DNA of 32,000 bases. Source: Chlamydiota bacterium (lineage in GTDB: Bacteria; Auribacterota; JACPWU01). The stretch is taken from assembly GCA_016196885.1 (NCBI GenBank), contig JACPWU010000002.1:30001-62000 (forward strand), in the 5' to 3' direction. Below the pieces are notes generated by a model. That model ran no database searches, was not told the DNA's origin, and was given only the letters and a program-made list of their open reading frames with translations. Shown piece by piece: positions 13,019 to 25,986 of this stretch (position 1 is the first letter of the stretch; the number at the start of each line of letters is the position of its first letter). The position numbers were made by a program, and so were the translations under genes.

Positions 13019-13027
13019 ATTTTTAAT

Positions 13028-13100
<73 letters not shown>

Positions 13101-13110
13101 TTTTTAAAAG

Positions 13111-13156: not shown

Positions 13157-14374
13157 TCATTTCTTTAATTGCATAAGTTCAATTCTTTCCCGAATATGCT
13201 CCTCAAAAGTTAAAGCCTGCATTTGCCCCAGGGGACGTAGAAAGACGGCCCCTGTTTTTCGAGCCATGTCTTGGAAGCGCTTTTTGTTTTTTGGATGAAT
13301 CGAATAGCCAATCGCTTGAAGCGCATTTTCCCATCCTTTAAGAACAGAAACAAGACTTCCTAAACCTCCAAGGGGTTTTACGAAAATGGTGCGATTCAGA
13401 CAAGAGGGATGAAAAGCAGAATCATTTTCGTAGAGGACTGTCCAGCTTGTATTCGGATGACTGGAGAGAGAAAAAGCTTTTTTCTTAAATTGATAGCGGC
13501 CTCGTATTTGATGAATCTGAGAGGCTTCTCCCGCAGAGATTTTGCCTGGGGGAAAAAGATGAGAAATTTCTTTCATGGCTTCAGCCAGTATTTTGGCCCA
13601 TTCGCGAGCCGAAATTTTTGATTCTTTCTCAACATAAATGGCATGGGGTGATACGCAACCTTGTTGATCATAGAGGCAAATGTCATAAGCCGCGCGTCTA
13701 GCTAATTTCTTTGCGTTTTGAGAGCGGAGACTTTCTTTATCAATGACCGCGATACTGACTTTGTGTCCAAAGGGTAAGAATTTCTTTCTGGAAGGAAGCC
13801 GTTTTTGAATTTCTAAAAGGGTCTCATCGTTTCCATAAACATGGATAAGATCAGATGCTTTAAAAATGGTTTTCTCAAAATTAAATTCTCCGCCTTTCCA
13901 CCCACAACAAGAAATGCAGTTGCCTAGTTTAGGATCTACTTGACGAATAGATTCAGCCAAGAGCATGGGAAAGAAAGGTGCGCGGGAAGAACATTTCACG
14001 AAAACAGATGATTTGAGAAGAAGCGCCCAAAAAATATCAAACAACATGGGGGTGGGAATAATGCCTGCGAAAATAAAACTGGAGAGTTTGGGATTTGAAA
14101 AGACGTGTTTTTTCTGAAGGGCCGTCTTTAAATGATGAGATTGAACTTCCCTAAAGGCGATATTGAGGCCTTCAGAAATAACTTTCCTTGAGCATCCTGT
14201 GCTTTCAGAGAGGATGGTTTCTGCCTCCCGACGGGTGGGACTTTTCGTATCTAGCCAGAGAAGGGTGACTTGATGGAGTTTTTGAATGAGGGCTTCGTTG
14301 GGGAGAGGACTTAAGTAGGATGCTTGTTTTTCTTTAAGTCTTTTTAAGATTTTTTTTAAGTTGTTTTGATTCAT
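13157..14374 (-). CDS. LuxC-family acyl-CoA/acyl-protein reductase (aldehyde-forming)
   Basis: 405 aa. LuxC-like layout with the active-site Cys context YDQQGCVSPHAIYVE. Lies downstream of LuxE-like and aminotransferase genes on the same strand. Confidence 0.7.
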   Translation of the reverse strand: MNQNNLKKILKRLKEKQASYLSPLPNEALIQKLHQVTLLWLDTKSPTRREAETILSESTGCSRKVISEGLNIAFREVQSHHLKTALQKKHVFSNPKLSSFIFAGIIPTPMLFDIFWALLLKSSVFVKCSSRAPFFPMLLAESIRQVDPKLGNCISCCGWKGGEFNFEKTIFKASDLIHVYGNDETLLEIQKRLPSRKKFLPFGHKVSIAVIDKESLRSQNAKKLARRAAYDICLYDQQGCVSPHAIYVEKESKISAREWAKILAEAMKEISHLFPPGKISAGEASQIHQIRGRYQFKKKAFSLSSHPNTSWTVLYENDSAFHPSCLNRTIFVKPLGGLGSLVSVLKGWENALQAIGYSIHPKNKKRFQDMARKTGAVFLRPLGQMQALTFEEHIRERIELMQLKK

Positions 14375-14380
14375 AAGACC

Positions 14381-14413
14381 TTGACAAAAGAAAACTAGTT
14401 TATTAAACTAGTT
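14381..14413 (+). promoter_or_regulatory. Promoter plus palindromic operator of the phd/vapC operon
   Basis: TTGACA (14381-14386), 17-nt spacer, TAAACT (14404-14409). Perfect 10+1+10 palindrome aactagttta-t-taaactagtt (14393-14413) overlaps the spacer and -10. Confidence 0.5.
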
Positions 14414-14439
14414 GTGTTGGAAAACTGCAAGGACTTTTT

Positions 14440-14712
14440 ATGATGGAAGAGTATGGATATGGACAAGATGTAAGTGCCTTTGAGGCCAAAACCCATCTTT
14501 CGGAGCTTTTAAGGGAGACGGAGCAAGGAAGGTCTTTTGTGATTCGTCGCAGGGGGAAAATGGTTGCAAGGTTGGTTCCCCCTCTACGAGAAAATAAACA
14601 TGCCGAGATGGATAAAATTCTGGCGTCGTTTCGAGAAATTCGTCGGCATGTTGCAGGTCGTGGGAAGCCCATCAAGATTAAGAATCTTATTGAAGAAGGA
14701 AGAAGGTTTTGA
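14440..14712 (+). CDS. Type II antitoxin, Phd/YefM family
   Basis: 90 aa. Contains VSAFEAKTHLSELLRETEQGRSFVIRRRGKMVARLVP, typical of prevent-host-death antitoxins. Its stop overlaps the toxin start (TGATG). Confidence 0.75.
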   Translation: MMEEYGYGQDVSAFEAKTHLSELLRETEQGRSFVIRRRGKMVARLVPPLRENKHAEMDKILASFREIRRHVAGRGKPIKIKNLIEEGRRF

Positions 14713-15137
14713 TGGATTGGGTTCTGGACTGTTCTTTTGCGCTCTCCTGGACTTTCCCTGATGAGCGTTCAGAGTCGTCAGAGCGGCTCCTTAAAAATCT
14801 ATCACAAGAATCTTTACTTTGGGTCCCTTCCTTGTGGTGGGTGGAGCTATCCAATGCAATGAGGGTGGGTTTAAAGAAGAAGAGGTTGTCAGAAGCTGAT
14901 TTGACACTGGCGATGGATCATTATGGGTCACTTCGGATTCAAACGGATTTTGCGGGTCAATCTGACTATGTGTGGCGTCTTCTGAGTTTGACCAGAGAAT
15001 ATGATTTGTCTGCCTATGATGCTTCTTATCTCGAGTTATCTCAGAGAAAGGGTTTGGGTCTTGCTACTCTGGATCGTGCCTTAGCTTCTGCTGCTCAAAA
15101 AGCAGGTGTTAAATTGGCTCTTCGTCACTTAAGTTAA
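14712..15137 (+). CDS. vapC: Type II toxin, VapC (PIN-domain ribonuclease)
   Basis: About 141 aa. PIN acidic residues in the expected contexts (VLDCSF, WWVELSNA, SAYDASYLELS, LATLDRAL). The track start at 14709 is TTG, and ATG at 14712 is more likely. Confidence 0.75.
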   Translation: MDWVLDCSFALSWTFPDERSESSERLLKNLSQESLLWVPSLWWVELSNAMRVGLKKKRLSEADLTLAMDHYGSLRIQTDFAGQSDYVWRLLSLTREYDLSAYDASYLELSQRKGLGLATLDRALASAAQKAGVKLALRHLS

Positions 15138-16220
15138 ATAATTCTGCATAACTAGAGAGCAACCTCTGGGTTCTGCGCGAGGAGCCCTTCCCAGAATTTC
15201 GAATCCATCTCCCATTTTCACACCCATGTCTTCCGTCAAAAGCCCCATGACACTGGAGCGATTGGCCAAATCATAATGTTGAAGAAGACCTATTTTACCT
15301 TTGGGTTGTTCCTCCAGTGTAGAGGGATTGAGCACACGTGTTCTTACCCAAGGAGGAATGTTTTTGTAAATTTTTCTTTTTCGTTTCTGAATAAAATTTT
15401 GAAGGGTGTTGTCATAAAATTGGGAACCCATTTCGGTCATGCCGTATTCGTTTACAATATGGGTGAGAGGAATATCCAATATTTGATGAATCATTTCATA
15501 AAGTTCTTTTTTCGCAAGCTCCCGGGATTTCCCTTTGGTGCCCCCTGTTTCCATCACACGTGAACCTGAAGGGAGTTTAAATTTCCACTTTTTCTCGACA
15601 CAATGATCTAGAAAATGGACGAATGAGAAGGCTGTTCCTAAGATAATGACGGGTTGATCGGACGAAGAAAATGATTCCAGTTTTTTCTGAAGGAATTCTG
15701 AAAGGAGTTTCCCTTTTTTTAAGAAATAATAGGTTTTACCTTTGATGCCTATTTCTTTTTCGAGAACACCCATCATGTGACACAGAGATGAATGGGGCAT
15801 TTCTTGAGGAGTGGGCGTTAGGATGAGCAAGGGCCATCGCTTTTCATGGATGCAAAAGCTATTTTTAAAATGGATGAGAAGCGATTTTTCGTAGAACCTT
15901 AAATTTTCAAGATAGTGGCGACCCTTCTTTTGAAGGGTTGTTCCACTGGTGTGAAAGACTTTTTGTGCCTTTCGAAATGGGAAACAGCATAGGATTTCTT
16001 CTTTGAAAACAGTTGTGGGTACAAAGGGGATCTCTTTCCAATGGGAAATTTTGCAAGGGATTCGGCCTAATTGAAGGCAGTATTTTTGAAAAGGGCGATT
16101 GTGAAGATATTGATATTTAAAAAGTTCAAGGGCGAGGGAATTAAATTTTTTTTCATTTGCTTGTGCCTCTTCCATAAAATCCAAAATAAGACAGTCTAAT
16201 TTTTTTGTGCTGAGAGACAT
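15129..16220 (-). CDS. LuxE-family acyl-protein synthetase / acyl-adenylate-forming enzyme
   Basis: 363 aa. The N-terminal FNSLALELFKYQYLHNRPFQKYCLQLG...WKEIPFVPTTVFKEE matches the LuxE family pattern. The 3' end overlaps vapC convergently by 9 nt. Confidence 0.7.
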   Translation of the reverse strand: MSLSTKKLDCLILDFMEEAQANEKKFNSLALELFKYQYLHNRPFQKYCLQLGRIPCKISHWKEIPFVPTTVFKEEILCCFPFRKAQKVFHTSGTTLQKKGRHYLENLRFYEKSLLIHFKNSFCIHEKRWPLLILTPTPQEMPHSSLCHMMGVLEKEIGIKGKTYYFLKKGKLLSEFLQKKLESFSSSDQPVIILGTAFSFVHFLDHCVEKKWKFKLPSGSRVMETGGTKGKSRELAKKELYEMIHQILDIPLTHIVNEYGMTEMGSQFYDNTLQNFIQKRKRKIYKNIPPWVRTRVLNPSTLEEQPKGKIGLLQHYDLANRSSVMGLLTEDMGVKMGDGFEILGRAPRAEPRGCSLVMQNYLT

Positions 16221-17533
16221 TTTTCAATCACTTTGTAAGCGTGTCCAAGTTGTTTTTCGGAAATGCTCAAGGGAGGTGTAAAGATGAGCACGTTGCCATC
16301 CATCCCATCTGAAAGGAAGATAACTCCTTCTCTCAAAGCTTGCGTAACCAAATCTCTTGCCCTGCGGGGATCCGCTCTTCTAGAATTTTTCTGAACAATT
16401 TCGACTCCGATCATGAGTCCTCTTCCTCGAATTTCGCCGATACAAGGATAGGTCCTTTGAAGCTTCCGGAGTTGTAAAATCCATTTTTCTCCCAAGATTC
16501 GTGCCCTTTCTATCAATTTAAGCTTTTGAATTTCTTGAAGATTCCTAAGGGCCATGGCACATCCCAAGGGACTTGCCATGAAAGTGCTGGTGTGAAGTGC
16601 CTCGTCGTGGTAGCGAGGCCAATGGGACATGACTTTGCGAGTACCGATGCAGGCGGAAATAGGAAAACCTCCAGAAAGGCCTTTACCAATGGTCATAATA
16701 TCAGGAACAATGTCACTCGCTTGGAAGGCAAACCAAAATCCAGTTCTCCCCATCCCTGAATAAATTTCGTCAGCAATCAATAAAACATGATATTGATTGC
16801 ACAGATGCCGCAGCCCTTTTATGAAGAGGGGAGGGGCCATTCGAATGCCGCCTCTTCCCTGAATGGGTTCAATCAGCACAGCGCCTATTTTATTTTTTTT
16901 GAAAAGCGTTCCCATTTTTTTGAACAAGTGATGGATTTGTTCGGAGGTGAAATTGTGAGGATAAGAAACTGAAATGCTTCGAAGGCCCAGTTGATTTTTA
17001 AAAGGTTGATGTAGATTAAGAAAATTTGTGGCTTTCAAGGCTCCGTAACTCATGCCGTGATAGCTGCCTTCGAAAGTGATAAGGCCTGATTTTCCCGTGG
17101 CCAAAAACGCTGTCTTAATAGCGATTTCAACTGCCTCTGCCCCTGACGATCCAAAAATTATTTTTTCAAGAGGGGAGGGAAAAATTTTACTTAAGCGTTC
17201 AAGCAATTGGATTTTGGATTTGTCAGGATAGACATCACTCAAGGAATGAAGAAGTTTTTGGGCCTGTTTCATTAGGGCTTTCACGACGCTAGAATTTGTG
17301 TGGCCCGTTTGTGCTACACCAAATCCAGCTGTGAGATCAAGGTAGCGATTCCCATCCACATCCCAGACGTTGGCTCCTTGGGCTTTTTCCCAAACAATGG
17401 GGGTGTTCTTATTGATAAGGGTGATGTTGGGGCATTCATGACGCAAAAGTTTTTTTGCCAGGGCCCTAGATTTTGGGCCTGGAATTGCGGTGCTTCTGAT
17501 TTCAGGAAGAAATGTCCTAGAGGTATTTTTCAT
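16196..17533 (-). CDS. Class-III (omega-type) PLP aminotransferase
   Basis: About 445 aa. Contains GSYHGMSYGAL, LIADEIYSGMGRTG and PDIMTIGKGLSGGFP (PLP lysine). Overlaps the LuxE-like gene by 25 nt. The track start at 17536 is TTG, with ATG at 17533. Confidence 0.8.
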   Translation of the reverse strand: MKNTSRTFLPEIRSTAIPGPKSRALAKKLLRHECPNITLINKNTPIVWEKAQGANVWDVDGNRYLDLTAGFGVAQTGHTNSSVVKALMKQAQKLLHSLSDVYPDKSKIQLLERLSKIFPSPLEKIIFGSSGAEAVEIAIKTAFLATGKSGLITFEGSYHGMSYGALKATNFLNLHQPFKNQLGLRSISVSYPHNFTSEQIHHLFKKMGTLFKKNKIGAVLIEPIQGRGGIRMAPPLFIKGLRHLCNQYHVLLIADEIYSGMGRTGFWFAFQASDIVPDIMTIGKGLSGGFPISACIGTRKVMSHWPRYHDEALHTSTFMASPLGCAMALRNLQEIQKLKLIERARILGEKWILQLRKLQRTYPCIGEIRGRGLMIGVEIVQKNSRRADPRRARDLVTQALREGVIFLSDGMDGNVLIFTPPLSISEKQLGHAYKVIEKCLSAQKN

Positions 17534-17638
17534 CAAGACGAATTTACCGTGTCTGTTAGAGGAAGATCAAGAAAATCCGAAAAGTATTTAATCCCTTTCA
17601 GATATCTTTAGAAACCTCTGGACAAATACACTTTTTTG

Positions 17639-17677
17639 GAATAATATGCGATTATAATCGCATATTATTCTTTTTTT
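17639..17677 (+). promoter_or_regulatory. Perfect 32-nt palindrome followed by T7, acting as operator, attenuator or orphan terminator
   Basis: gaataatatgcgattataatcgcatattattc equals its own reverse complement (14-bp arms, TATA centre), followed by ttttttt. A possible TGGACA-17-TAATAT promoter (17619-17647) overlaps its left arm. Confidence 0.5.
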
Positions 17678-17705
17678 ATCTTAACCATCTTATTACAAAT
17701 AGGTT

Positions 17706-18989
17706 ATGGACTCTAAAATTCCGAAATATCAGAATCCTTGGTGGGAAAACCCACAGGCCATGCTTGATGACCAGCATCTTCTTGCCATTCGAGGGAAACC
17801 CTACGAATATACCCCATCGCTGGTTTGTGAGACGCCATTTGCTCCAGGGGACATTTTTGTCTTGAGAGGTCCTAGACAGGTTGGGAAGACAACAACCCTT
17901 AAAATGTTTATTCACCGTTTGCTCCAAAAAGAATGTGTCGACCCACACTCTGTTTTTTACTTGAGTTGTGAGGCGATCATTGATTTTAGAGAGTTGATAG
18001 AAGTTCTTTCAGAATATTTTGCGGACCGGAAAGGAAAAAGAACTTACCTCTTCCTGGATGAAATTTCTTTTGTTTCAAAGTGGCAAAGGGCGATTCTTGC
18101 AATTGCAAATCAAGGCTTGATAAATTCTTCAACCCTTGTGTTGACAGGATCCAATGCAAGAGATTTGAGAGAGAGCAGTGAGCGTCTTCCCGGAAGAAGA
18201 GGGAAGGGAAAAGATCTGGAACTTTTTCCGCTGTCTATTCCACAATTGAAAACATTACCCTGTTTTCAAGAGTGTTCGTTCAAGAGGCTTTTAGAGATTT
18301 ATATGCTTGTGGGAGGGTTTCCCAGGGCAATTGCAGACTTTGTCACGCTGGGGGCTGTTACTGACAATACTTATGATATCTATCGTAATTGGATTGTGGG
18401 GGATGCCAGTCGCTATGATTTAAGACAGGAGACATTAAAGCAGATTCTCTTTCGGATTGCCCAAACCATGGGAAGTCGTATCACCTGGCCTAAACTGATT
18501 GAGAATAGCCCTGTCAAAAGCCATGAAACAGCGCTTGAATATGTTGAACATTTGAAAGATGCTTTTCTCTGTCATGTCCATTACTGTTATGACCCCGATC
18601 TAAACGGCCCCTCTTTTCATAAGGCGAGAAAAATCTATTTTATGGATCCTCTTCTTTATGGGGTTGCTGTATGTTGGCGTGAGGGCAGGGTCAATATAGC
18701 CCAGTGGATGAAAGAAACGCTTCAGGATGATTCAGAATACGGCCACATGTTTGAGTCTACTGTGATCAATCACGCGGCAAGAATTTATCCTGAAATTTTC
18801 TTTTGGTACTCTGCCAAAGAGCAAAAAGAGATTGACCTCGTTCTCAAATATTCAGGTGAAACAAGCCTTTATGAAGTCAAGCGATCAGAAGATTCAACGG
18901 TGCTTCGCGCCTTGGGTAGAAACGTCTCTATTCTTCATCCGCAATCGTTCGAGAAATTTCTAACAAATTGTTCAGTGCCTCGTTCTTGA
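17706..18989 (+). CDS. AAA-family ATPase (AAA_14 N-domain plus DUF4143-like C-domain)
   Basis: 427 aa. Walker A LRGPRQVGKTTT, Walker B YLFLDEISF and LVLTGSNARDL. The architecture is typical of DUF4143 ATPases. Confidence 0.7.
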   Translation: MDSKIPKYQNPWWENPQAMLDDQHLLAIRGKPYEYTPSLVCETPFAPGDIFVLRGPRQVGKTTTLKMFIHRLLQKECVDPHSVFYLSCEAIIDFRELIEVLSEYFADRKGKRTYLFLDEISFVSKWQRAILAIANQGLINSSTLVLTGSNARDLRESSERLPGRRGKGKDLELFPLSIPQLKTLPCFQECSFKRLLEIYMLVGGFPRAIADFVTLGAVTDNTYDIYRNWIVGDASRYDLRQETLKQILFRIAQTMGSRITWPKLIENSPVKSHETALEYVEHLKDAFLCHVHYCYDPDLNGPSFHKARKIYFMDPLLYGVAVCWREGRVNIAQWMKETLQDDSEYGHMFESTVINHAARIYPEIFFWYSAKEQKEIDLVLKYSGETSLYEVKRSEDSTVLRALGRNVSILHPQSFEKFLTNCSVPRS

Positions 18990-20435
18990 AGAAAGTTTTT
19001 TAGTTTGCTTAATATCGAACTCATTTTCCGAAATCAAAATGGCGGTCATCCCTCCTTGCTGGGCGACGTTGACGATTTCTCTCTGGGAGGCTCGGCCTAA
19101 AATGCCCAATCCATAAGGAGAATAAATGAAGCCGCAGACGACATTCAAGTTTTTCTCAGTGACTCTTCCTTTTTCATCTAGGATGGGAAATTTTTTCTTT
19201 CTTGTCGCGCATCGTTTTTGAAGAACATAAGAACCTGGATCTCGAATGGCCTTCTCGAGGGCCTTCTCCCAAGTTATTTTTGGAGTCTCGTCCCCCATCA
19301 AAATGCCCATGCCTCCGTAACCGCGATTGGGTTTGAGAACCCATTCATTTCGATGGTGAATCGCATGGGAGATCAGGTCAACCCTTTTTCCATCGGGGTC
19401 TGTCGTTTTTGTCTCTCGCACGAGCCGTGTCCACAAAACATGTTTCTTGAAAATTTTCCTTTCCTCTAAATTGAAGTGGTGTTCAAACTCTGGGTTGCTG
19501 AAAATTTCAAAGGCGCTTTTATGATCGAGTTCTCCGGAGAGTCCTGAAACCACGACATTTTCTTGAAAGGCTTTTCGAATGGCTTTAAGAGGCTTTCCCT
19601 CTTCTTTTTCCATTTCGATGAATTCTTCGAGGGTGCTGTCACGGTAAAGAATGTCTAGGGGCAAATCCTTATACACGATTTCTCCCTTTTTGATTTTGAG
19701 GTCTCGTGGATCTGCAACCACGGCTTCGATTCCTTGGGATTGAAAAAGTTGGGCGAGGTAAAAAAAATCGAGAGGTCCGCCTTTGGTTCGGTCATCTAGG
19801 ATGAGTCCGATGTTACATCGACGCTTGCCCAACATTTTTAAATGGGCTTGAAGTTCCCATAGAAGAATGGAGCGAATGTCATCATTGGGCCGGACTTGAA
19901 GGTTTGGGGCGAGGGGACGTAAGGAGTGGATCACCGTTTCTAAAATAATTCTTTCAGCCGTCGGCGTGTAATGAAGGCCGCCCACCCCTACGCCATTAAC
20001 CTCCAGAAAATGAAAGGCCGCCCGCCAATCTTGTCCACTGAAGTTGGCATTTGCGTCCCAGCGGGTGATGGCGGTACGGGGAGCCTCTCGATTTTGGGGG
20101 AAGTATTGGAGGAACCATTCCTCTTCTTTTTTCTGAAAGGGGAAGAGTTTTTTCACTTTAGGATTTTTGAGATAAAGCCATGACAATTTTTGATAGGCCT
20201 GGTTCATGTGGTAGCATGTCTTTAGAAAAAAGGTGCGTTGGAGAGGTGTGATCAAGCGAGGCCTCATCAGAAGTGGGATCAGGCGGGTAGAGCCGTTTTC
20301 CTCTTCGTACACCATGCCTTTTTTGCGGCTTTCTTTTTGAATTTCTCGAAAAAGTTTTTGAATCTCGTGTTTGTCCAACTTCATGAAGAGCTGATGAATG
20401 GAGTTAGAGAGGGAATAATCGGGCCAAGGACTCAT
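18972..20435 (-). CDS. Circularly permuted ATP-grasp (type-2-like) amidoligase
   Basis: Blocks resemble the CP_ATPgrasp_2 family: STRLIPLLMRPRLITP, RWDANANF...FHFLEVNGVGVGGLHY, EWVLKPNRGYGGMGILMGDE, GILGRASQREIVNVAQQGGMTAILI. I prefer the ATG at 20435 (AAAGGTG RBS). The TTG-extended track start at 20477 runs into a heptamer repeat. Confidence 0.6.
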   Translation of the reverse strand: MSPWPDYSLSNSIHQLFMKLDKHEIQKLFREIQKESRKKGMVYEEENGSTRLIPLLMRPRLITPLQRTFFLKTCYHMNQAYQKLSWLYLKNPKVKKLFPFQKKEEEWFLQYFPQNREAPRTAITRWDANANFSGQDWRAAFHFLEVNGVGVGGLHYTPTAERIILETVIHSLRPLAPNLQVRPNDDIRSILLWELQAHLKMLGKRRCNIGLILDDRTKGGPLDFFYLAQLFQSQGIEAVVADPRDLKIKKGEIVYKDLPLDILYRDSTLEEFIEMEKEEGKPLKAIRKAFQENVVVSGLSGELDHKSAFEIFSNPEFEHHFNLEERKIFKKHVLWTRLVRETKTTDPDGKRVDLISHAIHHRNEWVLKPNRGYGGMGILMGDETPKITWEKALEKAIRDPGSYVLQKRCATRKKKFPILDEKGRVTEKNLNVVCGFIYSPYGLGILGRASQREIVNVAQQGGMTAILISENEFDIKQTKKLSSRTRH

Positions 20436-20452
20436 GAAGCACCTTTTATGAC

Positions 20453-20524
20453 CAGCGGTCAGCGTACAGTTTTGCAAGGAATTGATTTTTTTTCCTGACT
20501 GCTAAACGCTGACCGCTGACCGCT
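20453..20524. repeat. Heptamer-repeat inverted array, AGCGNNC / CTNNACG family
   Basis: cagcggtcagcgt (20453-20465) pairs with acgctgaccgctg (20506-20518). The right arm ctgactg ctaaacg ctgaccg ctgaccg ct has a 7-nt period. Lies in the divergent spacer of the ATP-grasp locus. Confidence 0.7.
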
Positions 20525-21057: not shown

Positions 21058-22083
21058 ATGCGAGTCGGGCTGACATACAATCTCAAAGAAAATGCCAGTC
21101 TAGCAGATGAACATTCTGCAGAATGGGACTTACCTGAAACCATTGACGCCATCGCGAATGCTCTTTCCCGCGAGCATGAGGTCATTTGGGTTTTGGCGGA
21201 TGCCGATGCCTATGAGAAGTTGAGACATTCTCGGGCAGACATCGTGTTCAATGTTGCGGAAGGAAAAGACGGCCCCAATCGAGAAGCACATTTACCTGCC
21301 ATTTTAGAATTCTTGAGAATTCCATACACAGGTTCTGACTCTTTGACTTTGAGTCTTTGTCTCAACAAGGCTCGGACCAAGGAAATTCTTTTCTATCACG
21401 GGATTCCCACACCTGATTTCCAAGTTTTTCACGCCTCCAATGAACCTCTCGTCTTGACCGATTATCCAATGCTGGTGAAGCCGTTATGGGAAGGTTCGAG
21501 CATTGGAATTCATGACAATGTCTGGGTTGAAAATGAGAAGGAACTTCGTTCAAAAATGAAGGGGATCATTGTTCAACATCATCAACCTGCGATTGTTGAA
21601 GAAGCCTTGACGGGAAGAGAGTTCACCGTGGCTCTTTTGGGAAATGGAACTCAGTTGAAGGTGTTGCCTTTGGTTGAAGTGATGTTGGATGCATTGCCCC
21701 ATGAGGCCCATCCGCTTTATTCTTATGAGGCGAAATGGATTTGGGACACCCCTGAAAAGCCTTTGGATATTTTTCATTGTCCGGCCCAGGTGGAGGATGT
21801 TTTAAAGGGAAAAATAGAAGGAATTGCCAAGGCCGCTTTTAGAGCCTTGGGGTGCCGTGATTGGTGCCGGATCGATGTTCGGTTGGACCGAGAGGGAAAT
21901 CCCTCCATCCTAGAGGTGAACCCGCTCCCGGGCATTTTACCCAATCCTCGTCAAAATTCTTGTTTTCCAAAAGCGGCTCGGGCGGCTGGGATGGATTATC
22001 CCGAAATGGTTCTTTCCATTTTGGGGGCGGCGCTGGAGCGCTGTGGAATGTTAGAATCTGTGGGGAGTTCGAAAAGGCGTTAG
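21058..22083 (+). CDS. D-Ala-D-Ala-ligase-like ATP-grasp amidoligase, paralog 1
   Basis: 341 aa. Ddl-family blocks: LNKARTKEILFYHGIPTP, PMLVKPLWEGSSIGI, AIVEEALTGREFTVALLG, YSYEAKW, RIDVRLDREGNPSILEVNPLPG. The substrate cannot be inferred. Confidence 0.75.
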   Translation: MRVGLTYNLKENASLADEHSAEWDLPETIDAIANALSREHEVIWVLADADAYEKLRHSRADIVFNVAEGKDGPNREAHLPAILEFLRIPYTGSDSLTLSLCLNKARTKEILFYHGIPTPDFQVFHASNEPLVLTDYPMLVKPLWEGSSIGIHDNVWVENEKELRSKMKGIIVQHHQPAIVEEALTGREFTVALLGNGTQLKVLPLVEVMLDALPHEAHPLYSYEAKWIWDTPEKPLDIFHCPAQVEDVLKGKIEGIAKAAFRALGCRDWCRIDVRLDREGNPSILEVNPLPGILPNPRQNSCFPKAARAAGMDYPEMVLSILGAALERCGMLESVGSSKRR

Positions 22084-22263
22084 CCCGCATTTCTCATCAG
22101 ATTTCGTCGCGAGAGCGTCGAGTCTGCCTTGGATGCGAGGAAGACGCTCCGTGCCATGCGAGGCATACTTTACAGTATGTTGAGCGTGGCCGACCGAGTC
22201 TGCACGGAGAGACGAGGCGGAATCGGAGAAGAGCAGCAGAAATGTGATGAGAAATGTGGGCTA
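22081..22263. repeat. GC-rich 183-nt structured insert bounded by 19-nt inverted repeats (element A)
   Basis: tagcccgcatttctcatca (22081-22099) against tgatgagaaatgtgggcta (22245-22263), complementary except for one G-T. Internal helices gagcgtc/gacgctc and catact/agtatg. The left repeat starts on the TAG stop of paralog 1. Confidence 0.75.
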
Positions 22264-22265
22264 GC

Positions 22266-23309
22266 ATGAAAAAAATTATCATTCTTTATGATGCCACTCC
22301 AGGCTTCCAGCTAGATCCGGAGGCAAAAAAGGCCTTGGATGTTTTTAGGGATGTTGAAAAAATAGGATGTATTTTGAAAAAACAGGGCTTTCAAATTCAA
22401 ACCTTGGGGTTGGACTTTCCGATCATTCGTAAGATTCAAGAATTGGTAAACACCGATGTGGATTTGGTTTTTAACCTTTGTGAGGGATTGGGGGATGAGA
22501 GTGCCTATGAAATTCATGTGGCCTCTTTGTTAGAATTGATGAAAGTTCCCTTTACAGGATCGGGTTCTCTCAGCCTCGCCTTCTGTCACAACAAGGCGAT
22601 TGCGAAGGCCCTCTTGAATATGCATGGCATGCCGACGCCGAATTATATTTTAGTTGAAGCAGGGGATCCCATCTCTAAACAAGGATTGGAATATCCTTTG
22701 ATTGTGAAGCCAGTACATGAGGACGGGAGTTTTGGAATTGATGAAGATTCAGTGGTGCACCATGATGGGCCCCTGAAGAAAAAGGTTTCTTTTATTCATG
22801 AATTTTTTCGGCAGCCCGCTATTGTGGAAGAATTCATTGATGGCCGAGAGTTTAACGTTTCGATTTTGGGAAATGATCCTTTGGAAATGGTGAAGGTTCG
22901 TGAAATTTGTTTTTCCTCAAGGTACGAGCCTCGCATTGTGAGTTTTGATGCAAAGTGGAAAAAATCAAGCCGTGCCTTTCGCGCCACGAGGCCTTGTCGG
23001 GTGGAGGATCTTCCACAAGGGGTTAAGGAAAAGATGATACAGGTTGCGATTCGATGCCACGAGATTTTTAAAATGAAGGATTATGGACGAATTGATTTTC
23101 GATTGGGGAAAAGCGAGATTCCTTATGTCATTGATTTAAATCCCAATCCCTGTATTTCAGCTGATTCGGGAATGGCCTTGGCAGCCGTTGAGGATGGGAT
23201 TTTATATGAAGAACTTATCGGAAAAATCGCAAGCCTTGCCTTGTCTCGAGAAAATGGGAAAGGTCTTCAGGGTTCGGGAAGCAACTCCATCGGATCGAGA
23301 GAGGATTGA
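22266..23309 (+). CDS. D-Ala-D-Ala-ligase-like ATP-grasp amidoligase, paralog 2
   Basis: About 347 aa. Blocks HNKAIAKALLNMHGMPTP, PLIVKPVHEDGSFGI, AIVEEFIDGREFNVSILG, RIDFRLGKSEIPYVIDLNPNP. Roughly 30% identical to paralog 1 by eye. The alternative ATG at 22254 lies inside the right inverted repeat of element A. Confidence 0.75.
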   Translation: MKKIIILYDATPGFQLDPEAKKALDVFRDVEKIGCILKKQGFQIQTLGLDFPIIRKIQELVNTDVDLVFNLCEGLGDESAYEIHVASLLELMKVPFTGSGSLSLAFCHNKAIAKALLNMHGMPTPNYILVEAGDPISKQGLEYPLIVKPVHEDGSFGIDEDSVVHHDGPLKKKVSFIHEFFRQPAIVEEFIDGREFNVSILGNDPLEMVKVREICFSSRYEPRIVSFDAKWKKSSRAFRATRPCRVEDLPQGVKEKMIQVAIRCHEIFKMKDYGRIDFRLGKSEIPYVIDLNPNPCISADSGMALAAVEDGILYEELIGKIASLALSRENGKGLQGSGSNSIGSRED

Positions 23310-23742
23310 GGAGATTCTCAAGGCGTCAAAAGTTTTTAGCCAAGCCGAGGTTGCTTGTGCCCTTTCTCTTTTCGAGATTTATCTGGAGAGAGGAGGAGCG
23401 GATGAGTATGTTTTTTGCTGTGCCTGCGATGAGGCAGATGTTGTTCAGGGATTGATTTGCTATGGGAAGGCTTCTCTGACGGATGCAGTTTATGATCTTT
23501 ATTGGGTGGTGACGCATCCAGTCCATCAGGGAAGAGGGATCGGGAGCTTGCTCATGGAAGAACTGGACCATCGCCTGAAAATTTTAGAGGCTAGAATGAT
23601 TTTAGCTGAGACTTCTTCGAGGGCTGATTACGAGAAGTCTCGGGCGTTCTACCGTGCCCATGGGTATGAGCTTGTTTCGACGATTCAAGATTATTATGCG
23701 TTGGGAGAAGATTTGGTTGTTTTTGGGAAAAGATATCCTTAA
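23254..23742 (+). CDS. GNAT-family N-acetyltransferase
   Basis: About 162 aa from MGKVFRVREATPSD. Acetyl-CoA motif VTHPVHQGRGIGSLLM (Q/RxxGxG/A). Overlaps paralog 2 by 56 nt. The track start at 23188 would lengthen the overlap. Confidence 0.75.
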   Translation: MGKVFRVREATPSDRERIEEILKASKVFSQAEVACALSLFEIYLERGGADEYVFCCACDEADVVQGLICYGKASLTDAVYDLYWVVTHPVHQGRGIGSLLMEELDHRLKILEARMILAETSSRADYEKSRAFYRAHGYELVSTIQDYYALGEDLVVFGKRYP

Positions 23743-23787
23743 GACTGTTATTCGTACTTCGTTTTAAAAGAAATAAAGGAGGATTTT

Positions 23788-25035
23788 TTGAACAATCGCG
23801 TTCAAGAAATTTTAAAGGCGACATCTCAAGAATGGAACGATTGGCATTGGCAGATGCGTCATCGCATCTTGAGCGTGGACGATTTAGAAAAATTGATTCA
23901 ACTATCTGAAGAAGAAGAAAAAGGAATTGAGTGGGCTTCTCATCAGAGAAGCCTCCCCTTGGCCGTCACCCCTTTTTTTGTCTCTCTGATGGATCCTGAG
24001 AACTTCGATTGCCCGGTTCGAAAACAGGTCATTTGTAGGCAAGAGGAATCCCTGGATGCCCTTTTTGACATGCAGGATCCTTGCGGGGAAGATTCTCACA
24101 GCCCTGTTCCCAATTTGGTGCATCGTTATCCAGACCGGGTGCTTCTGATTGCAACGGATCGTTGTCTTTCTTATTGCAGGTATTGTACGCGCAAGAGAAT
24201 TGTGGGAAGTGGAGAGGTGGGTCTCTCCACAGAGAAATTGGACAAGATTTGCGATTATTTGGAGTGCACACCGCAGGTGAGAGATGTTCTCATTTCAGGG
24301 GGGGATCCTTTGATTCTTTCAGATGAAAGAATTGATTATCTCTTGGGGCGTCTTCGGAAAATCAAGCACTTGGAAATTTTAAGAATTGGAACGCGAGGCC
24401 CTGTTTTTCTTCCGCAGAGGATTACTCCGGACTTGGTCTCTATCTTAAGAAAATACCATCCTTTTATGATGAGCATTCATGTGAATCATCCAAAGGAATT
24501 GGCGCCTGAGGTGTCGCGTGCCTTAGAAATGCTGGCGGATGGAGGGATTCCCTTGGGGAGCCAAACCGTTTTGCTCAAGGGCGTGAATGATGACCCAGAC
24601 GTTGTGATGAAATTGTGCCATGAACTTTTAAAGGTCAGGGTGCGGCCTTATTATCTTTACCAGTGCGATCCTGTCTTTGGGACAGAGCATTTTCGGACCT
24701 CTGTGGATGTGGGGGTGAAGATCATCGAGAAGATGAGGGGCCATACCACTGGTTATGCCGTTCCCACTTTTGTGGTGGATGCCCCCGGAGGGGGAGGGAA
24801 AATTCCTATCTCTCCCAATTATCTGGTTTCCAATGTTCGAGGGAAAACCATTTTGCGCAATTACGAGAATAAAATTTTTGAATATCATGATCCTTTGGAA
24901 ATTGGGGCTAAAAAGAGACGGTCGAGGGCGAAGACATGGACTTCTTTACAAATGACATTGCCTCTTAAAGTAGAATCTTTCACTCCTTCCGAGCCCTTTG
25001 TTCAGCCTAAAAAGGCCAAGAGCGCCATTCGTTAA
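23788..25035 (+). CDS. kamA: KamA-family radical-SAM lysine 2,3-aminomutase
   Basis: 415 aa. Contains NLVHRYPDRVLLIATDRCLSYCRYCTRKR (CxxxCxxC), VRDVLISGGDPL, GSQTVLLKGVNDD and RPYYLYQCD. TTG start with AAGGAGG RBS (23777-23783). Confidence 0.85.
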   Translation: MNNRVQEILKATSQEWNDWHWQMRHRILSVDDLEKLIQLSEEEEKGIEWASHQRSLPLAVTPFFVSLMDPENFDCPVRKQVICRQEESLDALFDMQDPCGEDSHSPVPNLVHRYPDRVLLIATDRCLSYCRYCTRKRIVGSGEVGLSTEKLDKICDYLECTPQVRDVLISGGDPLILSDERIDYLLGRLRKIKHLEILRIGTRGPVFLPQRITPDLVSILRKYHPFMMSIHVNHPKELAPEVSRALEMLADGGIPLGSQTVLLKGVNDDPDVVMKLCHELLKVRVRPYYLYQCDPVFGTEHFRTSVDVGVKIIEKMRGHTTGYAVPTFVVDAPGGGGKIPISPNYLVSNVRGKTILRNYENKIFEYHDPLEIGAKKRRSRAKTWTSLQMTLPLKVESFTPSEPFVQPKKAKSAIR

Positions 25036-25086
25036 ACATTTTCTTCTCGACCTTACCTTCGGATCATCTTGAAAGGGGGGTTTTCT

Positions 25087-25986
25087 GTGCAAAAAATAGA
25101 CTTTGGTATTGCCTGGGAGTGGGAATACGATGGAGATTTTATTCGGCTTTTAGAGGCCGAGTGTGAAAGGCAAGGTTTGAGTGTTTGGGTCGTCCATCCC
25201 AAGAATTTTGATGCGGTTCATGAAAAGATAGAGAGAAAAGAAATTTCTTTGAGTGCCTATTTGGATCGCGCGGGCGATGTCTTGGAGCGCTTTGCCCGAT
25301 TTGCGGAAGGCCTCAGGGCTCAAGGCGCCTGGGTTCTCAATCCATTCTCGCATGTTGAAAGGTCGAGAGACAAGGCCACGATGCATTTAGAATTTCTCAC
25401 CAAGGGTCTTCAAGTTCCTTTTACAGTGATTCTTTCCCCTTATGACAAAGACCCCGAACTGAGGTTCAGCGAACTTGAGAAATTGGGCCGTCCTTTTATC
25501 ATCAAACCTGCTTGTGGGGGAGGAGGCTTGGGCGTGGTGATGGGTGCTGAAAATTTGTTGGATGTAATTGAGGCCCGGAAGGAATACCGCGCCGATAAAT
25601 ATTTGCTTCAGAAGAAGATTATTCCAAAGTGTTTTGGGCTCCGGCGAGCTTGGTTTCGCTCCTTTTATGTGTGTGGGAAGGTCATTTCCTGCTGGTGGAA
25701 TGATGAGACGCATCTCTACGACGTTTTGACGGATGAAGAAAAAGAACTTTATCACTTGGTAAAATTAAAAAATGTGACCCGCTCTATTGCAGAGGTATGC
25801 GAGTTAAATTTTTTTTCAACCGAGATCGCTATTGACGAGGAGGAAAAATTCGTGGTGGTGGATTATGTGAATGAGCCTTGTGACATGAGAATGAAGTCTG
25901 TTCATCGGGATGGTGTTCCAGATGAAGTGGTTCAAGAGATTGTGCAAGCCTTGGTAGAAGGGGTCAAAAAGACAGTTATAAGTTGA
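25087..25986 (+). CDS. ATP-grasp-fold ligase (RimK/GshB-like superfamily, subfamily unclear)
   Basis: About 299 aa. Contains RDKATMHLEFLTKGLQVP, GRPFIIKPACGGGGLGVV, YLLQKKI and VVVDYVNEPCDM. I prefer GTG at 25087, 6-7 nt after AAAGGGGGG. The track start is TTG at 25069. Confidence 0.6.
   Translation: MQKIDFGIAWEWEYDGDFIRLLEAECERQGLSVWVVHPKNFDAVHEKIERKEISLSAYLDRAGDVLERFARFAEGLRAQGAWVLNPFSHVERSRDKATMHLEFLTKGLQVPFTVILSPYDKDPELRFSELEKLGRPFIIKPACGGGGLGVVMGAENLLDVIEARKEYRADKYLLQKKIIPKCFGLRRAWFRSFYVCGKVISCWWNDETHLYDVLTDEEKELYHLVKLKNVTRSIAEVCELNFFSTEIAIDEEEKFVVVDYVNEPCDMRMKSVHRDGVPDEVVQEIVQALVEGVKKTVIS

Follow-up and report, generated by a model that had tools for sequence, protein, structure and literature searches.

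A LuxE-like and LuxC-like gene pair with a class-III aminotransferase as a probable QueC- and QueF-independent route to preQ1

The stretch analysed here, called the window throughout, comprises 32,000 nucleotides of forward-strand DNA from a bacterium filed under Chlamydiota (Auribacterota in GTDB; assembly GCA_016196885.1, contig JACPWU010000002.1, positions 30,001 to 62,000), and all window positions are counted from its first letter. The subject is a set of three minus-strand genes coding for a class-III pyridoxal phosphate (PLP) aminotransferase, a LuxE-like protein and a LuxC-like protein, hereafter the trio, which are listed with the features around them in Table 1. The end of the aminotransferase gene and the start of the LuxE-like gene share 25 nucleotides (16196-16220). 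The aminotransferase was given the start TTG at 17536, the ATG at 17533 being equally possible. LuxE and LuxC are each single-copy in the source genome, according to a genome search. Between the two genes lies an antisense Phd-PIN pair, whose open reading frames (ORFs) are adjacent and overlap by 4 nucleotides, as fits a type II toxin-antitoxin system, and the stop of the PIN toxin overlaps the stop of the LuxE-like gene. A first-pass annotation of the window, made from the letters alone, had described the overlapping aminotransferase and LuxE-like genes and, after an intervening cassette, a LuxC-family reductase with the motif YDQQGCVSP. Both descriptions were correct.

Table 1. Features at the trio locus, in window positions
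Feature	Position	Strand	Description
Aminotransferase (class-III PLP, group A)	16196-17536	minus	446 aa; PF00202, E=5.9e-102; proposed step 3
LuxE-like gene	15129-16220	minus	363 aa; PF04443, E=2.9e-26; proposed step 1
LuxC-like gene	13157-14374	minus	405 aa; PF05893, E=2.6e-56; proposed step 2
Phd antitoxin	14440-14712	plus	PF02604, E=7.2e-9, 35.7 bits, above cut-off
PIN/VapC-like toxin	14709-15137	plus	PF01850, E=1.4e-8, 35.8 bits, above cut-off
AAA_14/DUF4143 ATPase	17706-18989	plus	PF13173, E=5.4e-25; PF13635, E=3.1e-15
Circularly-permuted-ATP-grasp-like gene	18972-20477	minus	501 aa; CP_ATPgrasp matches sub-threshold only
Perfect AT-rich palindrome	17638-17671		15-pair hairpin followed by a T-run, lying between the divergent aminotransferase and AAA ATPase genes

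The family assignments of the annotation were upheld by profile searches, all three proteins scoring above the gathering scores. The LuxE-like protein matched Pfam LuxE with 92.7 bits (gathering score 24.9) over profile positions 30-391, the LuxC-like protein matched Pfam LuxC with 191.7 bits (gathering score 21), and the aminotransferase matched Aminotran_3 with 341.8 bits. The support is at the level of families. Against the NCBIfam equivalog for LuxE, NF052244 (long-chain-fatty-acid--protein ligase), the score was 72.5 bits with a cut-off of 550, and against that for LuxC, NF052251, it was 82.1 bits with a cut-off of 750. The sole solved relatives of the two proteins are the two chains of the LuxC-LuxE complex of Photobacterium phosphoreum (PDB 7XC6; PMC9157457), to which the pair is about 20-25% identical. 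The LuxE-like protein matched the LuxE chain (7xc6_E) at E=2.9e-18, and the LuxC-like protein matched 7xc6_A at E=3.5e-14 in an alignment that spans residues 136-382 of 477 only, being itself about 70 residues shorter than P. phosphoreum LuxC (PpLuxC). K229, R345 and C354 of the LuxE-like protein align with K238, R355 and C364 of P. phosphoreum LuxE (PpLuxE), the residues required for adenylation and for carrying the acyl thioester (PMC9157457). All three are invariant across 21 orthologues, and C354 lies in the C-terminal (K/R)GC motif of the acylated cysteine of LuxE. The cysteine of YDQQGCVSP, C240 of the LuxC-like protein, aligns with the catalytic cysteine of 7xc6_A (YDQQACFS), which is Cys296 in PpLuxC (PMC9157457). 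It is kept in 41 of 41 orthologues, where the motif reads DQxGC(L/V/M)SP. Since the families and the catalytic residues are the same, the mechanism of LuxC-LuxE is likely kept in the window pair.

Judged by scores and alignments, the window proteins are members of the LuxE and LuxC families and not luminous enzymes. The EYGMTEMGSQFYD block is invariant in the orthologue group of the LuxE-like protein and missing from PpLuxE, and a search of the ESM Atlas returned generic LuxE clusters only. The pair also differs from the luminous one in being coupled to an aminotransferase. As the annotation had stated, no luxAB or luxD family occurs among the scanned ORFs of the window, where luxC and luxE thus do not stand beside luxA/luxB and luxD as in a bacterial lux operon; no genome-wide luxAB search was made. 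The annotation had proposed a fatty or other primary amine as product. In the fatty version a fatty acid would be reduced to the fatty aldehyde and transaminated to a long-chain primary amine for an amino-lipid. Pfam places the proteins in the LuxE and LuxC families, whose sole characterised members reduce myristic acid (PMC9157457), and this speaks for such a product. The equivalog scores, at about one tenth of the cut-offs, and the invariant block that PpLuxE does not have speak against it.

The aminotransferase reached no named equivalog either, its best NCBIfam score being 349 bits with a cut-off of 574. The best PDB and NCBIfam matches were GabT, PuuE and acetylornithine aminotransferases, the nearest solved relatives were an archaeal amino-acid racemase, GabT and PuuE, and the aminotransferase domain of PigE was a distant match. 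Residues were compared in alignments with PuuE, GabT and 19 orthologues; the Schiff-base lysine, K285, is invariant in 20 orthologues. Three further positions correspond in Escherichia coli GabT to the substrate-carboxylate arginine (R141), the gate (Glu211) and the alpha-carboxylate arginine (Arg398). The first, the arginine of the HGR motif, is methionine in the window protein (HGM), and the motif reads HG[L/M] across the orthologues of group A. The gate glutamate of QGEGG is replaced by arginine (QGRGG). The arginine of NV(I/L)R, equivalent to R398, is isoleucine in the window (NVLI) and isoleucine, methionine, serine or glycine among the orthologues. With none of these three residues in place and no equivalog cut-off reached, the enzyme lacks the marks of the GabT, ArgD and ornithine aminotransferase (OAT) type and, on this sequence comparison, is not a standard ArgD or GabT. 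The loss of the Arg141 equivalent fits an aldehyde substrate without a carboxylate, and such an enzyme would also suit a hydrophobic aldehyde, which is a second point in favour of a fatty amine.

In arginine and lysine biosynthesis, ArgB/ArgC/ArgD and LysZ/LysY/LysJ activate a carboxylate, reduce it to the aldehyde and transaminate the aldehyde by a class-III aminotransferase. The trio has the same three-step logic and, together with the matches to GabT, PuuE and acetylornithine aminotransferases, this raises the possibility of an ArgB/ArgC/ArgD analogue or a reversed gamma-aminobutyric acid shunt, in which reduction and transamination at the distal carboxylate of glutamate, aminoadipate or succinate would give a diamino acid or an omega-amino acid. 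The known pathways differ, however, in activation by a kinase, in a reductase of the glyceraldehyde-3-phosphate dehydrogenase type and in a second carboxylate bound by an arginine. That arginine of GabT, OAT and ArgD is methionine or leucine in all group-A orthologues. The scores below every equivalog cut-off count against the analogy as well, and it would leave the link with queuosine genes described below unexplained, so we consider it very improbable. The logic is also like that of reductase and transaminase pairs in alkaloid and other natural-product pathways, such as tambjamine biosynthesis, where TabE acts with a transaminase, and the prodigiosin enzyme PigE; in both, an aldehyde from thioester reduction is transaminated to a primary amine, and TabE and LuxC share a sequence cluster (bioRxiv 10.1101/2025.08.11.669332). 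The substrates there are fatty or polyketide chains held as thioesters on a carrier protein or CoA, and the genes belong to biosynthetic clusters, whereas the trio is without a carrier protein and lies among housekeeping or que genes.

Thousands of relatives of the LuxE-like protein were found. A scan limited to one genome per species gave at least 587 loci, and the neighbourhoods were read in the best 80 of these. In this set of best loci, all from other species and spanning ten or more phyla, LuxC mostly comes directly after LuxE, and more than half of the loci have an aminotransferase next to the pair, either upstream or downstream. The locus of a cultured Herpetosiphon, of which 7 kb were seen, has the LuxE-like gene only. 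The adjacency of the trio is far beyond chance. Outside the phylum of the window the spacing between LuxE and LuxC is about 20-350 nucleotides. The upstream aminotransferases, from Verrucomicrobiota, Planctomycetota, Myxococcota, Spirochaetales and 'Deltaproteobacteria', are 41-46% identical in this set, and orthologues with 43-57% identity stand upstream of LuxE in loci of the Planctomycetota-Verrucomicrobiota-Chlamydiota (PVC) group, Myxococcota and others. The downstream ones, from Binatota, Nitrospirota and Manganitrophus, are 33-37% identical. Those downstream of LuxC in Binatota and Nitrospirota form a second type, 31-37% identical, with an HGD motif and the Arg398 equivalent kept. The annotation had also considered that the aminotransferase could be an ArgD or GabT ortholog in an unconserved neighbourhood; with the adjacency conserved, both arginine equivalents lost and no NCBIfam cut-off reached, this does not hold. 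Within the phylum of the window, 79 species genomes were in the set and only those of the window's family carry the module (4/4). In a quick LuxE tree this family groups with the modules of Planctomycetota and Verrucomicrobiota (Shimodaira-Hasegawa-like approximate likelihood ratio test, 94), and the tree largely follows phyla.

When ORFs were clustered around 83 loci, no universal neighbour beyond the trio emerged; the neighbours were GltBD, SufBD, YchF, thioredoxin reductase and the like, and no lipid or acyl-carrier genes recurred. Of the earlier proposal of a carboxylate-to-amine module, the thioester, aldehyde and amine logic is well supported by the catalytic residues and by the conservation of the trio across phyla, and the fatty-amine, amino-lipid or polyamine product is the part without support. 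The missing lipid genes speak against a fatty substrate, which also leaves unexplained both the clustering with queE, queD, queG and queA and the mutual exclusion with QueC and QueF to which we turn now. The fatty-amine product is very probably wrong, and as an explanation of the trio we give it hardly any weight.

Queuosine is a near-universal modification of the tRNA wobble position. In its synthesis QueE makes 7-carboxy-7-deazaguanine (CDG), QueC converts CDG into the nitrile preQ0 with two ATP and ammonia, and QueF reduces the nitrile with two NADPH to the amine preQ1, which is 7-aminomethyl-7-deazaguanine. The bacterial pathway is considered solved, and no route from CDG to preQ1 other than QueC plus QueF is known. 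The trio was repeatedly found beside other genes of this pathway. In eight Verrucomicrobiota loci the gene directly upstream of the aminotransferase codes for a radical S-adenosylmethionine (SAM) protein of 215 amino acids, which is QueE (TIGR04349, 300-305 bits, cut-off 300). In three Methylomirabilota loci the upstream gene is QueG (TIGR00276, 393 bits), and in a tblastn survey QueG adjoined the aminotransferase upstream in one Actinomycetota locus as well. Locus L089 (Verrucomicrobiota) has the order QueE, aminotransferase, antisense Snf2 helicase, LuxE, LuxC, QueD, and locus L045 has QueA and, further on, LuxE, LuxC and QueD in a row, both QueD proteins being above the TIGR03367 cut-off. 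The chemistry missing between the QueE product and preQ1 is exactly that of a carboxylate turned into an aldehyde and then an amine. In the source genome TGT (E=1e-155) and QueA (E=5e-118) are present, and QueE (TIGR04349, 278 bits) lies on the same contig as the module, about 41 kb off (C63:1879-2517). For QueC, only partial PP-loop matches of at most 28 bits were found in this 94%-complete assembly, and for QueF no match.

The distribution of the module was compared with that of QueC and QueF in 201 Verrucomicrobiota genomes, evenly sampled and each at least 85% complete, of which 165 have QueF and 158 canonical QueC. None of the eight carriers of the LuxE-like gene has QueF or canonical QueC, and all eight have QueE and QueA. 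Among the 193 non-carriers, QueF was found in 165, canonical QueC in 158 and QueE in 139; QueE is present in just one of the 28 non-carriers without QueF. Eight of the nine genomes with QueE and without QueF are thus module carriers. Nominal hypergeometric p-values were about 5e-7 for carriers versus QueF and about 3e-6 for carriers versus QueC, and a third for the same table was about 3e-7, but all are overstated, since related genomes are not independent and kinship was ignored. In the genomes sampled from this phylum the trio and the QueC/QueF route are mutually exclusive.

A second survey covered 50 module-bearing genomes from many phyla. QueA was present in 46 and a QueE-like protein in 35. 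A strong QueF occurred in one genome and marginal matches of 27-29 bits in five more, which leaves 49 of the 50 without a clear QueF. QueC-family proteins were retained in 22 carriers, four of them scoring 175-252 bits, which may be true QueC, and the rest 48-135 bits. Two of these paralogues were checked with the QueC equivalog TIGR00364 (cut-off 150.3), on which they scored 72 and 93 bits. Both are full-length, one at locus L180 (4451-5107, genome G083) and the other at L181 (1532-2200, in the sister genome G001), and the former sits beside a UbiD-type decarboxylase of the futalosine pathway. A link between such a QueC-like paralogue and the bypass is no more than possible. In the phylum of the window QueF was found in 31 of 79 genomes and in none of the four of the window's family, which is consistent with the complementarity, if weakly so.

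Because the trio clusters with queE, queD, queG and queA and is complementary to QueC and QueF, we take CDG as its substrate and preQ1 as its product. It is probable, from the gene content and the conserved residues, that the trio is a QueC- and QueF-independent conversion of CDG to preQ1 by way of 7-formyl-7-deazaguanine. In the first step the LuxE-like enzyme would adenylate the carboxyl group of CDG and bind it in thioester linkage to the enzyme's C-terminal cysteine. The acyl group would then pass to the catalytic cysteine of the LuxC-like enzyme and be reduced with NAD(P)H to 7-formyl-7-deazaguanine, which the aminotransferase would turn into preQ1. Afterwards TGT would put preQ1 into tRNA and QueA would modify it further. 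Chemistry from CDG to preQ1 would mean that the module replaces both QueC, which takes the acid to the nitrile, and QueF, which takes the nitrile to the amine. Substrate, intermediate, cofactor and amino donor of the route are inferred. With a little less confidence we also regard it as likely that the trio forms a nitrile-free branch of queuosine synthesis, with the first reductase of the LuxC-LuxE type shown to accept a heteroaromatic acid, and that no other de novo source of preQ1 exists in the lineages concerned, which belong to at least ten phyla. These lineages would, with the same degree of confidence, include PVC bacteria, Myxococcota, Binatota, Nitrospirota, Methylomirabilota, Gemmatimonadota and Chloroflexota.

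The proposed route would share with that of QueC and QueF its start in CDG, its end in preQ1, its net change of a carboxylate into an aminomethyl group and its neighbours QueD, QueE, TGT, QueA and QueG. It would differ in using unrelated enzyme families, in passing through an aldehyde where QueC and QueF have a nitrile, and in taking its nitrogen by transamination from an amino donor and not from ammonia. From the luminous LuxC-LuxE pair, the closest known system in mechanism, with its common families and its lysine, arginine and cysteines, the trio is set apart by its ties to que genes and by a predicted substrate that is a deazapurine carboxylate and not myristate.

Several observations weigh against this route. 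The CDG assignment comes from comparative genomics. Kinship inflates the p-values given above, and a QueC-family protein is kept in 22 of the 50 carriers. Searches of the 94%-complete source genome by PF01242, PF01227, PF02677, tblastn and a home-built QueD profile, FolE2 not being covered, gave no QueD, FolE type I, QueG or QueH, and de novo synthesis of CDG is for this reason not established there. The sister genomes G001, G002 and G003 have two QueD copies each; synteny with the QueD loci of G002 is not kept in the source genome, in which an assembly gap and a real loss are indistinguishable. No preQ1 riboswitch was found by Rfam near the module in the window or in 14 loci. With the alpha-carboxylate arginine (GabT Arg398) gone as well, the amino donor of the aminotransferase is not evident from its sequence. 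Finally, antisense insertions interrupt the module in the window's family, where it adjoins the ATP-grasp-like gene and, in one genus, glycan genes.

That the clustering with queD and queE shows only the involvement of a 7-deazapurine opens a further reading, in which CDG or a similar deazapurine is the substrate of the trio but ends up, for example, in modified DNA or a secondary metabolite and not in the queuosine of tRNA. Derivatives of 7-deazaguanine also occur in DNA and antibiotics (PMC5699537, PMC6884629). Against it, carriers nearly always have QueA, which needs preQ1-tRNA, while being without the only known source of preQ1, and QueG or QueA adjoins the trio in several loci. Genes of the DpdA type were not noticed among the neighbours of the trio, though no systematic search was made. 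We therefore hold a product outside tRNA to be quite unlikely.

The last alternative concerns the surroundings of the trio in the window's own family. The order ATP-grasp-like gene, aminotransferase, LuxE-like gene is kept in all four family genomes, and in genus g3 the block is preceded by three glycosyltransferase family 4 (GT4) genes, a Wzx flippase gene and a GT2 gene. A beta-lysine operon (21058-25986) is adjacent in the window. The product of the trio might then be a small amine or an omega-amino acid, and the ATP-grasp-like enzyme would ligate it to a glycan or to the beta-lysine product of that operon, as a decoration specific to this family. Non-luminous LuxE/LuxC homologues are known from flagellin glycosylation islands of Aeromonas and Enterobacteriaceae (PMC7874193, PMC4875605), and the glycosyltransferase genes beside the module of genus g3 are a point of likeness. 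The islands, however, encode an acyl carrier protein (ACP), FabG and an AMP-ligase, none of which occurs with the trio, and no class-III aminotransferase. The glycan link was rejected, the GT4, Wzx and GT2 genes preceding the block in genus g3 only and lying on another contig (C42) in the source genome.

The ATP-grasp-like gene was likewise rejected as a partner of the trio. It is colinear with it only in the window's family, was not found in five trio-bearing genomes of other phyla, and has 40%-identical homologues in many phyla. On four unrelated metagenome contigs (loci L114, L116, L118 and L124) a homologue lies 3-4 kb from, and divergent to, genes for a lysine-2,3-aminomutase and a Ddl-like ligase, with no trio, and the window shows a like arrangement, the gene being divergent from the beta-lysine operon. 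Because it is missing from the five carriers and divergent from lysine-2,3-aminomutase operons elsewhere, the ATP-grasp-like gene probably belongs to the neighbouring beta-lysine operon and not to the trio. Outside the window's family the neighbours of the trio are unrelated housekeeping or que genes, and a family-specific decoration is, on the whole, unlikely.

A literature search on LuxE/LuxC with an aminotransferase, on 7-formyl-7-deazaguanine and on missing QueC or QueF, partial in its coverage, gave no description of the proposed CDG-to-preQ1 route. The literature searched has 7-formyl-7-deazaguanine only as a by-product that QueF mutants form by hydrolysis (PMC13740343). If the route is real, QueC and QueF would be replaced in it by non-orthologous enzymes. 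The route would then correct reconstructions in which many environmental bacteria now count as queuosine auxotrophs or salvagers, and account for 'orphan' QueD and QueE genes. It would also provide the first physiological substrate for the large non-luminous LuxE/LuxC families, and an enzyme cascade from carboxylate to aminomethyl for heteroaromatic acids that would be of interest to biocatalysis.

The remaining features of the locus are insertions and minor elements. Both the Phd-PIN cassette and the AAA_14/DUF4143 ATPase gene, which sits between the aminotransferase and the upstream ATP-grasp-like gene, are insertions outside the pathway. The junction of the LuxE-like and LuxC-like genes holds an antisense gene in every genome of the family, and the gene varies. 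Phd-PIN occupies the same place in the source genome (14440-15137) and in G001 (L008 9936-10609), a glycosyltransferase of 1123 amino acids is found in G002 (L009 10100-13471), and an AAA_5/VWA protein of more than 2149 amino acids in G003 (L010 59-6508), where LuxC is on another contig. Together with the Snf2 helicase gene that splits the aminotransferase from the LuxE-like gene at L089, this looks as if the module tolerates antisense genes or even attracts their insertion. At the gap between the ATP-grasp-like and aminotransferase genes, the source genome has one AAA_14/DUF4143 gene on the opposite strand and G001 has two on the same strand (L008 5484-7531). There is no such gene in G002 and G003, in which the ATP-grasp-like gene abuts the aminotransferase. 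The palindrome upstream of the aminotransferase is possibly an operator or a terminator; Rfam gave no family matching 14300-17760, palindrome included, at E<=1.

In the window (13027-13101, tRNA-Phe) and in two sister genomes (L008 12210-12282, L009 14796-14868), a tRNA gene is found about 60-260 nucleotides from the 3' end of the LuxC-like gene. In Candidatus Manganitrophus a fluoride riboswitch (L058 8922-8989, 61.8 bits) was found on the opposite strand about 1 kb upstream of the LuxE-like gene and is probably unrelated to the trio. Elsewhere in the window, positions 164-1189 code for a radical-SAM protein with a DUF3463 domain, an architecture known from the hopanoid enzyme HpnH. A protein of 404 amino acids at 7788-9002 matches the nucleoside-diphosphate-kinase domain in its C-terminal part only, the N-terminal part of about 300 residues being without a family.

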